Under the pieces are notes generated by a model that had not been told where the DNA came from, ran no database searches, and was given only the letters and a program-made list of their open reading frames with translations. Below are positions 48,120-61,885 of a stretch of 64,000 bases of DNA, piece by piece. The position numbers and the translations under genes are program-made. The stretch covers positions 96,001-160,000 of the forward strand of contig JBHLOC010000002.1 in assembly GCA_048940925.1 (NCBI GenBank), in the 5' to 3' direction. Each line of letters starts with the position of its first letter. The stretch's first letter is position 1. This DNA is from Promethearchaeota archaeon (GTDB lineage Archaea; Asgardarchaeota; Lokiarchaeia; Sigyniarchaeales; SOKP01).

Positions 48120-50063
48120 ATGAAGAATAATCAAAATCATCGGATTGGATACTATGCATGTCAATGAGGTATAAATATAAGGAGTAAAGTAGATTGCGAT
48201 GAGTTAACTGAATATGTAGCTAAAAACTTTGACGATGTTGTAATTTCTAAGAAAAATTCATTTCTATGAACTGATAATGCTCAAAAAGAGATAATTGAAG
48301 ATATTAGAGAAAAGAATTTAAATAGAATTGTGGCATCAGCTTGAACTCCACGTACTCATGAAGTAATTTATAGGGGCACAATTGCTAAAACTGATTTGAA
48401 TCCTTATTATTTTCAGATGGTAAATGTGCGTGAACACTGCTCATGGTGTACAGATAGTAGAGAAGAAGCTACAGAAAAGGCTAAAATCCTAGTAAAAAGT
48501 GGTATTGAAAGGGTTAAAAGATTAGAACCAGTTCCTATTAAGACAGTTCCGGTCACTAAAGCTACTTTAGTGATTGGAGCTGGTATTGCAGGGATGAATG
48601 CGGCTCTGGATCTAGCGAATCAAGGTATCAAGGTTTACTTAGTTGACTGTAAAACTACGATAGGAGGGAGAATGGCACAATTAGACAGAACTTTCCCGAC
48701 AGATGACTGTGCAATATGAATATGTGGTCCAAAAATGTTAGAAGTTAATAGAAATGAGAATATTGAATTATTGACTTATAGTGAAGTAAAGAATGTAGAA
48801 GGATATGTCGGTAACTACAGAGTAACAATTGAGAGGAAACCAAGATTTACTACAGATGAATGTAATGGATGTGGAGCCTGCGCTGAGGTCTGTCCAGTTT
48901 ATACGACAAATTATTTCGATGAACATTTAGGGGCACGAAAAGCAATTGATATATCATTTGGCCAAGCAGTACCTTTTTTATATGATATCGATCGAAACAC
49001 CTGTGTAGAATGTTTCTCTTGTGTAGACGCCTGTGAATTAGATGCCATAGATTTTAGTCAAGAACCAAAAGAACTTAAAATTGATGTTGGTACGATTATT
49101 ATAGCGACTGGATGGGATATATATGAACCTTTTGGTGAATACGGATATGGAGAATTTGAAAACGTTATAACTCAACCTCAATTAGAACGAATGTTAGCTC
49201 CAAATGGACCTCTTGAAGGCCATGTACACAGAATATCAGATAATAAAGAACCTAAAGAAATTGTATTTATACAATGTGTTGGAAGTCGAGAAACTGAACG
49301 AACATACTGTAGTGGTGTCTGTTGTATGCTTGCTCTAAAAAATGGAAGATTACTCTTAGAGGAATTTCCAGATGCAAATATTACAGTTTGTTATATTGAT
49401 ATTAGAACACCTGAAAAAGGATTTGAAGAGTATTACGAACGATCAAAGGAAGCGGGAATTCGAATGATTAGAGGAAAAGTAGGAGAAATCTCAGAAGATC
49501 CTGATACTAAAAATATTAAAGTTCGAGTGTATTCATCGCTTACTGATGAAATAATAATAATTGATGCTGATTTAGTAGTATTATCCACAGCAGCACTCCC
49601 TTCAAAAGGATCCGAACAAATTGTTAAACTTTTAAATCTAGATACAAATACGTATGGATTCCTTACAGAATCACACTTTGGGTTAATGCCCCAAGAGACA
49701 AAAACAAAGGGAATTTTTATTGCTGGATTTGCTCAAGGACCAAAAAATATTTCTTATTCAGTTTCTCAAGCCAGAGCTGCTGCCAGTAAAGTAGCAGAGT
49801 TAACAGCACCAGGAGAAATCGATATAGAAATGATTACAGCTGAAGTTGATAGTGAATTTTGTATATCATGCAGACGATGTGAAAAAGAATGTCCGAAAGG
49901 TGCAATTAAAATTAAGGAGGATATCGGAGCATTTATTGATGAGATAAATTGTGATGGATGTGGTATTTGTGCTACATGTTGTCCTACACAAGCTATTGAT
50001 ATAAGATATTATCGAGATCATCAATTATTTGCTGAGATTGATGGTCTTTTAGGAGGTGCGTAG
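48120..50063 (+). CDS. hdrA: Heterodisulfide reductase subunit A, selenoprotein with four Sec (U16, U50, U75, U200); 647 aa
   Basis: Single frame from ATG 48120. TGA at 48165, 48267, 48342 and 48717 each align with Cys in the downstream paralogues (CQU/CHC, FLUT/YTCS, SAUTPRTHE/ASCTPRTHE, DCAIUI/DCAICI). Confidence 0.92.
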
Positions 50064-50066
50064 ACA

Positions 50067-50537
50067 ATGAGTAAGTATAATTATAAGGTGGTAGCATTTG
50101 CGTGTATAAAATGAGGATATAGTGCAGCTGATTTAGCAGGAGTTTCCCGATTGAAATATACATCAGCTATAAAAATCATCAAAGTGCGTTGTACCGGAAG
50201 AATCGATCTAAAACATATACTCTACAGTATAAAATCTGGAGCTGACGGTGTTATGATTGTAGGATGAAGACCAAATGAATGCCAATTTAAAAAGGGTAAT
50301 TTTACGGCTGAAAAGCATGTAGAATTAGCAAACAGGATATTAGAATTGAGAGGTTTTGGAAGTCAAAGAGTAAATATGTACTGGGTAAGTGGAGCAGAAG
50401 CAGAAAAATTTGTGCGAAGTGTAGAAGATATTTTTTCGAAAGTGGAGAAAGTAGGTCCAAATCCGATAAATTTAATGGATATTAAACCAGAAATAAATAA
50501 AAAAGAAAAAGAACTAATTACAGCCCCTGTTGAATGA
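50067..50537 (+). CDS. vhuD: MvhD/VhuD [2Fe-2S] subunit, selenoprotein with two Sec (U16, U67); 156 aa
   Basis: FACIKUGYSAADLAG versus FLCNWCSYAGADLAG; VGURPNEC versus LGCHPGDC; TGA at 50112 and 50265. Confidence 0.92.
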
Positions 50538-50588
50538 TTCTTGTAAAAAATGCTAGTTACAAGAGGACTAGCCTTGCAATGGAGGGGG
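50523..50588 (+). promoter_or_regulatory. Eukaryote-like SECIS element
   Basis: AUGAU (50534-38), 8-bp stem UCUUGUAA/UUACAAGA, loop starting AAAA, GGAC (tandem GA/AG quartet); lower helix CCCCUGUUG/CAAUGG(A)GGG. Confidence 0.8.
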
Positions 50589-50645
50589 ATTATTAAATAT
50601 TATAATAGATATAGATCAAAAATTTTTAAAAAAAAGGTTTAAAAT

Positions 50646-52142
50646 GTGGTTCAGATAGGCAAAGAGTATTCCTTTGATAAGATCAATCCACGGAATTTAA
50701 TGGAAGCAACATACAGGGCTATTGAAAATTTTCAGATAAGGGCTCTTTTTGAAGCAAAAGAGGAAATTTTACAAGCTGGAAAATATTCGGAAGAAGAATT
50801 TTATGAAATTTTAGACTCAATGATCGATGCTGAAACAGAACGCACATTGATTTTAGAAGAAATACGAGGTAACGAGCCCTTATTTTTAGAAGAACTAGTA
50901 AAGATTGTAAAGGACGTGCCTCCTGTAAATGTTATTAGAGATATATTTTATTTAAAGGAACAGGGTTATATTAAAAAAGAAATCGAAACTAAAATTAAAA
51001 AAGTTATCAAGAAAATTAAAGGAGAAGAAAAAGAGGTTGAAGAAAAAGAATTTTTCTATAGATATCAAGCTAAAGATCTTCCAAATGATTTTATAGAGCA
51101 CCATTTGGAACCTGTTTCTATTGTATTTAAAGCAGGAGTATGTTGTCATTGTGGATGGTGCTCCTCTATCTGTCCTGTAAATGCCATAACTGTAACTGCT
51201 GACACACTTGAAATACACGATGAAATTTGTATTAAATGTGGATTATGTTATACAGTTTGTCCTCGTTCCTTTTCAATTGAACAAGCTTTAATGGCTATTA
51301 AAAAACTTGATAAAACCTTTAAATTTTCAGAAAAAATTAATGGTTATATCGATACCTATTCTGCCACCACAACTAAAGATGAGATCAAAAAGGTACGACA
51401 AGATGGAGGAATCGTAACCTCATTATGTGAATATTTACTTACGAATAAATTAGTTGATGCGATTGTAGCTGTTCAGCATTCAAAAGACTTATGGAAACCG
51501 GAGCCAGTTATTGTAGATAATTTAAAAGATCTCTATAAGACAGGAGGGACGAAATATGCAAATGCATCAACATTAGCAATTATTGATAAAACAAAGATGT
51601 ATGAGAACATAGCAGTAGTAGGAACTCCCTGTATGATGAATGCTTTAGAAAAAGGTCAATTATTTCCAAGCGGTATAGTCTTTTTCAAGAATATAAAATA
51701 TAAAATTGGACTTTTTTGCATGGAATCTTTTCCCTATGAGGGTGTACTTGGATTAATTAAGGAGCAATTTAAACAGGATTTTACTAAAGTAACAAAGATG
51801 GATATCAGCGGTGGTAAATTTATTATCTATATGGATTCAGGAGAAGAATTAAAAGTACCACTTAACGATATTAAATCTTATGCACGCTCTAATTGTCATT
51901 ATTGTGAAGATTTAACAGCGGATTATGCTGATATTTCTGTAGGTTCAATTGGTTCAGGAAGTGGCTGGTCTTCTGTAATCACCCGAAATAAAAAGGGAGA
52001 AAAAATTTTTAAAGCTGCAGTTAAAGCTAAGTTAATCGAAGCTAAAAGTCTAAAAGAAGTTAAACCTGGTTTAGGTTTATTAGAAAGGATTGCTCTTAGT
52101 AAGAGGAAGAACTGTAAACCAATTAATCTAGAAGGAGAATAA
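50646..52142 (+). CDS. FrhB-family protein with N-terminal helical/wHTH domain and ferredoxin
   Basis: CCHCGWCSSICP, CIKCGLCYTVCP, QDGGIVT, VGTPC, IGLFC, ADISVGSIG. Confidence 0.87.
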   Translation: MVQIGKEYSFDKINPRNLMEATYRAIENFQIRALFEAKEEILQAGKYSEEEFYEILDSMIDAETERTLILEEIRGNEPLFLEELVKIVKDVPPVNVIRDIFYLKEQGYIKKEIETKIKKVIKKIKGEEKEVEEKEFFYRYQAKDLPNDFIEHHLEPVSIVFKAGVCCHCGWCSSICPVNAITVTADTLEIHDEICIKCGLCYTVCPRSFSIEQALMAIKKLDKTFKFSEKINGYIDTYSATTTKDEIKKVRQDGGIVTSLCEYLLTNKLVDAIVAVQHSKDLWKPEPVIVDNLKDLYKTGGTKYANASTLAIIDKTKMYENIAVVGTPCMMNALEKGQLFPSGIVFFKNIKYKIGLFCMESFPYEGVLGLIKEQFKQDFTKVTKMDISGGKFIIYMDSGEELKVPLNDIKSYARSNCHYCEDLTADYADISVGSIGSGSGWSSVITRNKKGEKIFKAAVKAKLIEAKSLKEVKPGLGLLERIALSKRKNCKPINLEGE

Positions 52143-52162
52143 CACATAAATATAATTTTATC

Positions 52163-53275
52163 ATGAGTTCAAAATCATTTAAGGATCTAATTAAAGAAGT
52201 TCATGAGAAAGGTATTTGTCAAGAATGTGGAGGCTGTGTAAGCTTTTGCAGTTCAGTTGATTATAATGTAATTGGATTTAAAGAACCCTTCTCACCTCCA
52301 GAATATATAAATAAAGATGCTTGTCTTGAATGTGGGATATGTTATTATCTCTGTCCTCAAACTCATATTTTGGATGATGATCTTAACAAAACATATAATT
52401 TTACTGATTTCAATTCAATGCCTTTAGGGTATTTCGAAGATATTCTATCTTGTCAAACAACTGATCCTGAATTTTTAAAACATGGAACTGATGGTGGAGT
52501 GGTAAATACAATCATAAACTACCTATTAGAAAAAAAATTAATTGATGGAGCGATTGTAGCAAAATATCAGGGTCCATTCTCTAGAGAATCCATGTTTGCT
52601 GAAGGAAAAGGTGATCTAATTAAGGCATCAGGTACAAAATTGGAAATATCTACCCAATTAGATGAAATTCAAAGATTTTGTACATATACACGCTCCATCC
52701 CTCAATTAAACCACTATAAATTTAAAAAATTAGCAATAGTGGGGACACCTTGCCAAATTTATACGGTTAGATGTATGCAAAATTTAGGTGTGACCCCTTC
52801 TGAGTATATTGAAATATGTTTAGGATTATTTTGCTATCATAATTTTCTTTTTGAGAAAACTCAGAGAGAAAAATTTGAAAAAACTTTTAATTTAAAATTT
52901 GAAAATATAAAAAAAATAAATATTAAGGAAGATTTGATTCTAAACTTGCAGTATAATAAATCTAAAGAGAAAACACTCCATATTCCTTTTGAACAGTTGA
53001 CAGATTACATCCGTCCTCCCTGTCATTCTTGTACCGATTTTACTAATATCTATGCTGATATTTCATTTGGAGGTCTTGGATCACCAAATAAATATACTAC
53101 AGTAATTCCTCGTACAGAAAAAGGTAAAAAATTGATTAACAAAATTCTTGATGATAAGATTATTAAATGTTTAGACATTGATGCTACAGCTGAAAATAAA
53201 ATGAAAGAGTTAATCACAAAATTTTCTCGATTAAAGATAAAGCGAGGAAAAGAATTTATAGAGAATTTAATGTGA
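52163..53275 (+). CDS. FrhB/FpoF-family protein
   Basis: CQECGGCVSFC, TDGGVV, VGTPCQ, LGLFC, CHSCTD..ADISFGG. Confidence 0.87.
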   Translation: MSSKSFKDLIKEVHEKGICQECGGCVSFCSSVDYNVIGFKEPFSPPEYINKDACLECGICYYLCPQTHILDDDLNKTYNFTDFNSMPLGYFEDILSCQTTDPEFLKHGTDGGVVNTIINYLLEKKLIDGAIVAKYQGPFSRESMFAEGKGDLIKASGTKLEISTQLDEIQRFCTYTRSIPQLNHYKFKKLAIVGTPCQIYTVRCMQNLGVTPSEYIEICLGLFCYHNFLFEKTQREKFEKTFNLKFENIKKINIKEDLILNLQYNKSKEKTLHIPFEQLTDYIRPPCHSCTDFTNIYADISFGGLGSPNKYTTVIPRTEKGKKLINKILDDKIIKCLDIDATAENKMKELITKFSRLKIKRGKEFIENLM

Positions 53276-57608: not shown

Positions 57609-58386
57609 CTTAATGGAATTCAAACCAAAAATTTTAGGATTTTTATGTAATTGGTGTTCTTATGCTGGGGCTGATCTTGCAGGTGTAAGTCGAATTCAGT
57701 ATTCTCCAAATATTAGAATTATAAGAGTTATGTGTAGCGGTAGAGTTGATCCTATCTTCATTGCTGAAGCGTTTTCTAATAATATTGATGGTGTATTAGT
57801 TTTAGGATGTCATCCTGGAGATTGCCATTATATAAGTGGCAACTATGAAGCAGAAATAAAAATGAAGATGTTGAATAAATTATTAGAATTAATAGGGTAT
57901 TCTAAACGTTTACGATTAGATTGGGTTTCTGCTGCTGAAGGTAATAGATTTGCTCAGCTAGTTGATGAATTTAATGAACATATTAAGAAATTAGGTCCTA
58001 ACCCAATAAAAAACAAAAAACTAAAAGCTAAATTATCTGACGATTTTGCTGCAATAAAATCTGTTTTGATGGATTCTAGACTTAGAATTTTAGTGGGTAG
58101 AGAAAGAAAAATCACTACAGAAGGAAATGCATATAATGAGATAATCCCTATAGAGGAATTTGACCAAAAAATTGACGATGCAATTAATAATGAATTTTCA
58201 CGATATAAAATATTGCAAAAAATCTCTCACCATAGTAAATCTGTCCCAGAAATCTCTAAAGAGGTTCAAATTGCGCCAAATGAAGTATTAAATCACATTG
58301 TTACTTTAAGACAAAGAGGGCTTGTTGATTTAGATGAGGTTAATGAAGAAATACCAACATTTATTTCAATTAAGGAGGGTAAATAA
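57589..58386 (+). CDS. mvhD: MvhD (Cys form) with C-terminal helical/wHTH extension
   Basis: CNWCSYAGAD, RVMCSGRVD, GCHPGDCHY; tail SVPEISKEVQIAPNEVLNHIVTLRQRGLV; start probably ATG 57613. Confidence 0.88.
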   Translation: MFMGGINLMEFKPKILGFLCNWCSYAGADLAGVSRIQYSPNIRIIRVMCSGRVDPIFIAEAFSNNIDGVLVLGCHPGDCHYISGNYEAEIKMKMLNKLLELIGYSKRLRLDWVSAAEGNRFAQLVDEFNEHIKKLGPNPIKNKKLKAKLSDDFAAIKSVLMDSRLRILVGRERKITTEGNAYNEIIPIEEFDQKIDDAINNEFSRYKILQKISHHSKSVPEISKEVQIAPNEVLNHIVTLRQRGLVDLDEVNEEIPTFISIKEGK

Positions 58387-61453: not shown

Positions 61454-61885
61454 GTGATAAGTAAAGAAAAAAAAATAAAAAATAAGGAATTTCATCCAAA
61501 TATTTTGTGTTTCTGTTGTAATTGGTGTAGTTATGCTGGAGCAGATTTAGCTGGAGTCTCACGATTTCAATATCCCTCTACTATTAGAATAGTACGTGTA
61601 ATGTGTTCTGGTAGAGTAGACCCCGCTTTTATTTTAGAAGCATTTAAAGATGGTATTGATGGAGTCATTGTAACAGGATGTCATATTGGTGATTGTCACT
61701 ATTTGAAGGGAAATGAATTTGCGAGAGATAGATTTGAACGTTTTCAAGAAGTTCTGAAAATATTTAATCTTGATAAAAGATTTAGACTTGAATGGGTAAG
61801 TGCCTCTGAAGGAAAACGATTTGCTGAAGTCATCACTGAATTTACTAATCAAATTAAAGAATTAGGTCCATTGCAAACTATTTAA
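61454..61885 (+). CDS. mvhD: MvhD (Cys form)
   Basis: CCNWCSYAGAD, RVMCSGRVD, GCHIGDCHY. Confidence 0.9.
   Translation: MISKEKKIKNKEFHPNILCFCCNWCSYAGADLAGVSRFQYPSTIRIVRVMCSGRVDPAFILEAFKDGIDGVIVTGCHIGDCHYLKGNEFARDRFERFQEVLKIFNLDKRFRLEWVSASEGKRFAEVITEFTNQIKELGPLQTI

Follow-up and report, generated by a model that had tools for sequence, protein, structure and literature searches.

How can a single RNA element direct the reading of six UGA codons as selenocysteine (Sec) in two genes, when the UGA in the core of that same element ends the second gene? This question is raised by the hdrA-vhuD locus of a window of 64,000 nucleotides (contig 41:96001-160000) taken from a genome of 4.8 Mb (29.6% G+C, 90 contigs), which has its nearest relatives among public genomes in MAGs of Promethearchaeota (Lokiarchaeia). 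The comparison of sequences described below supports the following reading: very probably, hdrA and vhuD are carried by one bicistronic mRNA, at whose 3′ end a Loki-type SECIS, eukaryote-like and putatively of the kink-turn type, serves all six UGAs, while vhuD would terminate at the UGA of the SECIS core.

We first consider whether the six internal UGAs are Sec codons. There are four in hdrA and two in vhuD, as counted in the first-pass annotation of this DNA (Table 1). HdrA of the window matches a solved HdrA (4e-199), in which U16, U50 and U75 align to Cys, and U200 aligns to the Sec residue (X) of the solved chain 9sfi_A. In VhuD, each of the two U positions has its counterpart in a Sec (X) residue of the solved 9sfi_K. 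The four Sec positions of hdrA are UGA in most orthologs too. Moreover, tRNA-Sec, SepSecS and a SelB-like gene were all detected in the genome. Because the UGAs align to solved Sec or Cys positions and the genome holds this machinery, the assignment of all six as Sec codons is credible. If the contig carrying tRNA-Sec were contig 3 (G000:C3:45426-51927), the SelB-like gene, SepSecS and tRNA-Sec would be clustered.

Table 1. Positions of the genes, codons and RNA motifs of the hdrA-vhuD locus (window numbering) and of the Sec machinery genes (contig numbering).
Feature	Position	Strand	Remark
hdrA, 647 aa	48120-50063	+	ORF and translation with TGA read as Sec; Pfam Fer4/FAD domains
hdrA in-frame UGA (Sec) codons 16, 50, 75, 200	48165-67, 48267-69, 48342-44, 48717-19	+	
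Shine-Dalgarno GGAGGUG for vhuD	50052-50058	+	within the last hdrA codons, 8 nt upstream of the vhuD AUG
hdrA stop UAG	50061-63	+	followed by ACA, then the vhuD ATG at 50067
vhuD/mvhD, FlpD family, 156 aa	50067-50537	+	Pfam PF02662 (FlpD) 1.6e-42
vhuD Sec codons 16 and 67	50112-14, 50265-67	+	
vhuD stop GAA-UGA	50535-37	+	UGA inside the SECIS core
Helix I, 5′ strand CCCCU	50524-50528	+	from the A-P codons of the vhuD tail (T-P in orthologs)
SECIS AUGA	50534-50537	+	U-G-A doubles as vhuD stop
Helix II, 9 bp	50538-46 with 50557-65	+	8 Watson-Crick pairs and a closing U.G, no mismatch
In-frame UAA	50544-46	+	top of the helix II stem
Apical loop AAAAUGCUAG, 10 nt	50547-56	+	AAAA...UAG
Core 3′ GA(C)	50566-50568	+	directly 3′ of the stem; presumed sheared partners of G50536 and A50537
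3′ mini-hairpin CCUUGCAAUGG	50572-50582	+	between the core and the helix I 3′ strand; consensus CCYUGCRARGG
Helix I, 3′ strand GGGGG	50584-50588	+	pairs with 50524-28; from covariance-model alignments
T5 run	50623-50627	+	possible archaeal termination signal
SelB-like gene	contig 3:45426-46322		about 4 kb from SepSecS
SepSecS	contig 3:50626-51927		
tRNA-Sec, one copy	50049-50141 of a contig not named in the output		Aragorn

The first-pass annotation proposed that the vhuD stop codon forms the AUGA of a kink-turn-type SECIS, and the AUGA, a stem of 9 bp, the AAAA loop and the GAC are indeed in place. The loop starts A-rich and ends in G, as the features of lokiSECIS require, and the 3′ mini-hairpin of the window carries one U.U mismatch. 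The first UGA of hdrA lies 2369 nt upstream of the AUGA, in agreement with the proposed reach of up to about 2.4 kb, and the six UGAs span 269 to 2369 nt upstream of it. Read-through of the core UGA would add only U-F-L before the next in-frame stop, a UAA, which had also been foreseen. The apical loop of the window is one A shorter than that of nearly all of about 60 relatives (11 nt); loops of 10 nt are also found in L057, L063, L065, L067 and L080.

The specificity of these motifs was evaluated by pattern and covariance-model searches. A strict pattern (AUGA, nine perfect pairs, a loop starting with AAA, GA) gave four matches on both strands of the 4.8-Mb genome and none in each of five shuffles; the other three matches likewise have a loop ending in UAG and a GAC tail. 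With a covariance model of the ortholog group (R1), seven elements were detected genome-wide. For a second model, R2, 71 elements were used and the window's own was left out; it scores the element of the window at 71.1 bits (E = 3.6e-18), and nothing else above 14 bits was obtained with it on both strands of the 64-kb window with the filters off. By contrast with these searches, the minimum free energy (MFE) fold of the single sequence was not significant against shuffles (z = -1.28): it prefers a competing pairing between the loop and the 3′ flank, which the orthologs do not keep. Of the folding and covariance checks put forward in the first-pass annotation, the covariance-model search of related loci thus supports the element and the single-sequence fold does not, so that the support comes from the comparison with other loci and not from folding energy. 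No member of the Rfam SECIS family was found at the gathering threshold on the window, nor at E<=10 on the 3.1-kb locus; a search of the 106-nt element at E<=10 returned no SECIS_1 (RF00031), and the Rfam scans gave only snoRNA and miRNA noise.

A scan of the genome collection for Sec-containing VhuD yielded 80 loci. All 34 orthologous loci (66-75% protein identity) end in ...P-x-E-UGA, with the UGA within GAAUGA, and this hexamer is invariant in the 35 aligned elements formed by these loci and the window. The 3′ part of the core is GA in 33 of the 35 elements of the ortholog group and AA in the other two; AA is common in other paralog groups. The hairpin and the GA quartet, on whose conservation the first-pass annotation had made its proposal depend, are therefore conserved, and loss of the hairpin with retention of the UGAs in many orthologs was not observed. 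In the 35-sequence alignment, double-sided changes occur at 8 of the 19 proposed pairs. In an alignment of 71 sequences 18 of the 19 pairs covary (all nine of helix II, all six of helix I and three of the four in the mini-hairpin), and 93.8% of the cells are paired, compared with 74.1% after shuffling, the observed values being reached in 0 of 500 shuffles; this alignment was fitted to the model and is hence biased towards the structure, although slide controls remained far lower. Within helix I, synonymous third-position changes (ACC to ACU, CCU to CCC) are matched in the 3′ partner. The mini-hairpin is also found in the SECIS of a PrxL gene, of an HdrA-like gene and of small ORFs of the same genome. 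These data support an element of three helices, namely helix I, helix II and the mini-hairpin.

They also bear on whether the hairpin, rather than being a SECIS, could terminate transcription, affect mRNA stability or be due to chance. Such a role would agree with the unremarkable single-sequence fold and with the T-run that follows helix I directly in the orthologs, most of which have T4-5 immediately 3′ of helix I and, some 30 nt further, another run. The T5 run of the window is itself weak evidence for a terminator, since the genome is 70% A+T, and a scan for sigma-70 promoters and intrinsic terminators, whose models are uninformative for an archaeon, returned no terminator. However, the motifs AUGA, GA and A-rich loop show no variation, save for the two AA cores of the ortholog group, and the element stands only beside UGA-containing genes of several unrelated families (VhuD, HdrA-like, PrxL and small ORFs). 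Furthermore, the two Cys-type mvhD paralogs of the window, which lie downstream on the same strand (57616-58035 and 61490-61873), have no match to R2. A role other than that of a SECIS is thus hardly conceivable.

Since hdrA ends 3 nt before the start of vhuD, as annotated earlier, we analyzed whether the element downstream of vhuD could be the only one available to hdrA. Exactly one element was found at 66 of the 71 related loci searched, always just 3′ of vhuD and never upstream. The alternative is that the UGAs of hdrA are served by a second cis element, by Sec-redefinition structures local to the individual UGAs, or by a SECIS acting in trans; the distance, which is unusual (as much as 2.37 kb, with a cistron boundary in between), would make this attractive. 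The scan of the leader and of the two coding sequences advised in the first-pass annotation did not disclose any such element. No second Loki-type element was found on either strand of the window, the best score inside hdrA being 10.5 bits (E about 4). A search for euryarchaeal SECIS of the GAA_A type with at least three G-C pairs in the upper stem gave 0 matches on the plus strand between 47780 and 50660 (shuffle mean 0.015). An alifold scan of the leader, hdrA and vhuD in 125 windows and 25 species gave near-zero consensus energies except at the SECIS, where the energy was -11.5 kcal/mol versus -1.1 kcal/mol for column shuffles; energies alone were used here, because z-scores from zero-variance shuffles are artefacts. 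Besides, the stop codon of hdrA among related loci is UAA in 40 cases, UAG in 19 and never UGA, as expected if the downstream SECIS acts on hdrA too. Separate recoding signals for hdrA are accordingly very improbable.

The arrangement of the two genes is conserved as well: the GGAGG and a gap of 3 to 6 nt between hdrA and vhuD are kept in 29 of the 30 orthologous loci examined. Taken together, the single element, the lack of an alternative one, the short gap with its GGAGG and the non-UGA stops of hdrA speak for a bicistronic transcript with one SECIS at its 3′ end for all six UGAs of the two cistrons, as had been proposed for this locus; co-transcription of hdrA and vhuD is what we infer from this arrangement. 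One exception to the sharing of an element between the two genes was seen elsewhere in the genome (L097; G000:C85:66853-66917, plus strand), where an HdrA-like ORF with two in-frame UGAs is followed, 7 nt past its stop and with no vhuD in between, by a SECIS of its own (AUGA...AA).

The transcript may extend further. An FrhB-like gene (50646-52142) begins 58 nt past helix I, and because of this proximity the SECIS may be intercistronic in a longer operon rather than located in a true 3′ UTR. An FrhB-like gene also follows the Sec-vhuD paralog of contig 19. The reading frame that the gene at 50646 shares with vhuD was considered and set aside as a coincidence; the frame is different in L022, the only ortholog matched by an over-strict motif search. 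A second FrhB-like ORF (52163-53275) was rejected as a selenoprotein, its four in-frame TGAs all lying beyond the true UGA stop (codon 371).

If one SECIS acts on six UGAs, the seventh, in its own core, has to be explained. By analogy with the eukaryotic and euryarchaeal systems, the folded SECIS would recruit the archaeal Sec elongation factor with Sec-tRNASec, either directly or via a K-turn-binding protein, and the recruited factor would insert Sec at the four hdrA and two vhuD UGAs at which ribosomes are stalled. When the core UGA enters the A site, the ribosome would cover the 5′ strand of helix I (7 to 11 nt upstream), the AUGA and the 5′ strand of helix II (3 to 11 nt downstream). The element would be unfolded at precisely that moment, the release factor would win, and vhuD would terminate. 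Since the footprint would leave the SECIS unfolded exactly then, established ribosome footprints lead us to expect termination, and not Sec insertion, at the core UGA. This agrees with the minimum-distance argument already published in the part of Mariotti et al. 2016 (PMC4989117) on which we draw.

Alternatively, the core UGA might be decoded as Sec, at least partly, the true terminator being the UAA two codons further on and the protein carrying a C-terminal U-F-L tail. UAA occupies this position in 32 of the 34 orthologous loci; among the loci with the overlap, an in-frame stop is found two codons on in 34 of 36 (UAA in 33, UGA in one, L035), and the two intervening codons always specify hydrophobic residues. 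However, this UAA is merely the top of helix II, and it is also present in relatives whose stop precedes the element (L045, L047 and the group with a TAA 22 nt before the AUGA). Conversely, CAA stands at this place in L024, L066 and L074, which do have the overlap and whose next stop is 7 to 21 codons away, and the PrxL element of contig 62 has the same overlap without a nearby in-frame stop. The codon variation preserves base pairs and not residues, and a ribosome sitting on the core UGA must have unwound the SECIS. In addition, the solved VhuD ends about 21 residues short of the C-terminus of the window VhuD, which leaves the tail without a known structural role. Decoding of the core UGA as Sec is therefore unlikely. 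The related idea that the UAA is a selected back-up stop was dismissed as unsupported, the codon being part of the stem and also occurring in relatives without the overlap.

The overlap of the stop with the core appears to be recurrent. Of the 67 Sec-vhuD loci in which an element was detected (the window and 66 related ones), 36 have the core UGA as their stop codon; in the remaining loci the stop is located 2 to 22 nt upstream of the AUGA. The overlap is also found in L066 and L074, which belong to a different paralog group, and in the PrxL gene of this genome; on these grounds it probably arose more than once. The conserved T-P-x-E tail is limited to the overlap group. As the solved VhuD is shorter and the tail is restricted in this way, the end of the VhuD protein is probably dictated by the RNA.

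We then compared the locus with known systems. The passages of Mariotti et al. (PMC4989117) considered here state that all HdrA-VhuD pairs have a single lokiSECIS, downstream of vhuD, that one lokiSECIS may suffice for as many as six UGAs spread across about 2 kb, that many stops are UGA, and that the AUGA of VhuU.1 doubles as stop codon. Huang, Xiao and Zhang 2024 (PMC11227280) describe a frequent overlap between UGA stops and the AUGA, and state that hdrA and frhD (vhuD) have one element in common almost without exception. Of the two points that the first-pass annotation had singled out as meriting testing, the overlap is present at this locus and the shared use is supported by comparison, but both are already known from these two papers as computational inferences. 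Our increments are the conservation of the stop within the core in 35 of 35 elements of vhuD orthologs, its recurrence in other genes, and the combination of a helix I lying in the coding sequence with a mini-hairpin.

As far as the description of lokiSECIS in those passages goes, the window has in common with it the gene order, the very short gap, the single element after vhuD, the AUGA, the 9-bp stem, the A-rich loop ending in G, the GA, and the restriction of hdrA stops to UAA and UAG. It differs in that the gene whose stop coincides with the AUGA is vhuD here and VhuU.1 there, and in the loop of 10 nt instead of 11 nt. The element also fits the type I Asgard eSECIS-like model of PMC11227280, which comprises a GA_[G/A]A core, a stem of 7 to 15 bp with at most two mismatches and a loop of 8 to 20 nt. 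That model consists of the core, the upper stem and the loop only, to which the present comparison adds helix I, the mini-hairpin and counts for each ortholog; neither an outer helix in the coding sequence nor a 3′ mini-hairpin is mentioned in the sections of the main texts of PMC4989117 and PMC11227280 that we cite.

Similarities with eukaryotic SECIS (RF00031) are the AUGA...GA quartet, the unpaired apical adenines, a long-range action from the mRNA 3′ end and, presumably, a minimum-distance rule. In contrast to them, the element has no Rfam match and a shorter stem, extends into the coding sequence and seems to act on two cistrons; SBP2, furthermore, is reported in the cited part of PMC11227280 to be absent from all Asgard genomes. 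The element resembles the VhuD SECIS of Methanococcales in its location in the 3′ region of vhuD and in that, there, one element serves the two Sec codons of VhuD; AUGA and GAC/AAC motifs are reported for these methanococcal elements in the part of PMC4989117 used here. Unlike euryarchaeal SECIS, the hdrA-vhuD locus has no GAA_A internal loop. As for the kink-turn, the sequence permits the pairs G50536.A50567 and A50537.G50566 next to helix II, together with the covarying helix I, and the junction of the window has an extra hairpin on the 3′ strand. The element of the window is a member of the Loki/Asgard family and not of RF00031, despite its eukaryote-like motifs and presumed action.

Support for lokiarchaeal SECIS is computational, and we found no experimental demonstration of one in the literature; in the only functional test reported, a lokiarchaeal SECIS was not functional in Methanococcus maripaludis (Peiter et al. 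2025, PMC11881835). Loki-type SECIS are a proposed link between archaeal and eukaryotic Sec decoding, and no more extreme action of a SECIS at a distance has been proposed than that of one element on six UGAs in two cistrons. The present locus offers a clean and strongly conserved example and no new principle.

The three helices allow a more speculative proposal, namely that the element is a three-helix junction made of the outer helix, the K-turn main stem and the CCYUGCRARGG mini-hairpin, with its whole 5′ half in the vhuD ORF of this lineage, and that the overlap with the stop is a recurrently evolved self-masking device. Whereas the helices themselves are supported by covariation, their novelty and the gating function are conjecture, and we hold the proposal as a whole to be possible but doubtful. 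If it were true, each ribosome finishing vhuD would dismantle the SECIS, and Sec decoding of the six UGAs would depend on the traffic over the last 4 codons.

Other Loki-type elements of the genome accompany genes and ORFs outside the hdrA-vhuD family. The PrxL (AhpC/TSA-type) selenoprotein gene (L094:1434-2105, minus strand; G000:C62) ends in ...P-K-E-E-UGA, with its stop UGA within the AUGA of its own Loki-type SECIS (C62:28230-28304, minus strand); helix I is long (AAUCCCAAA/UUUUGGGAUU). On contig 63, an ORF of 114 codons (L095:1247-1591, plus strand; G000:C63) has a hydrophobic N-terminal segment, a CKRU motif and no significant Pfam match. It runs in frame across helix II of a perfect Loki-type SECIS (C63:88531-88609), its first stop being the UGA of the 3′ ‘AUGAC’ side of the core; it may encode a small selenoprotein not yet filed, nearly all of whose SECIS would lie in the ORF. 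Beyond the window on its own contig, a 78-aa ORF with a hydrophobic segment, one UGA (GGTSUSSPC) and no Pfam match (L092:1585-1818, minus strand; region of G000:C41:222946-223020) has a Loki-type SECIS (65-73 bits) 9 nt downstream and is a candidate small selenoprotein. Finally, a 179-codon ORF without Pfam match (L099:1435-1971, minus strand; G000:C7 near 42985) contains a UGA-UGA pair (HADUUADVM) and ends in GAA-UGA-UUU-GAA-UGA, the second UGA forming the AUGA core of a perfect-pattern SECIS that both R1 and R2 missed in the whole-genome search.
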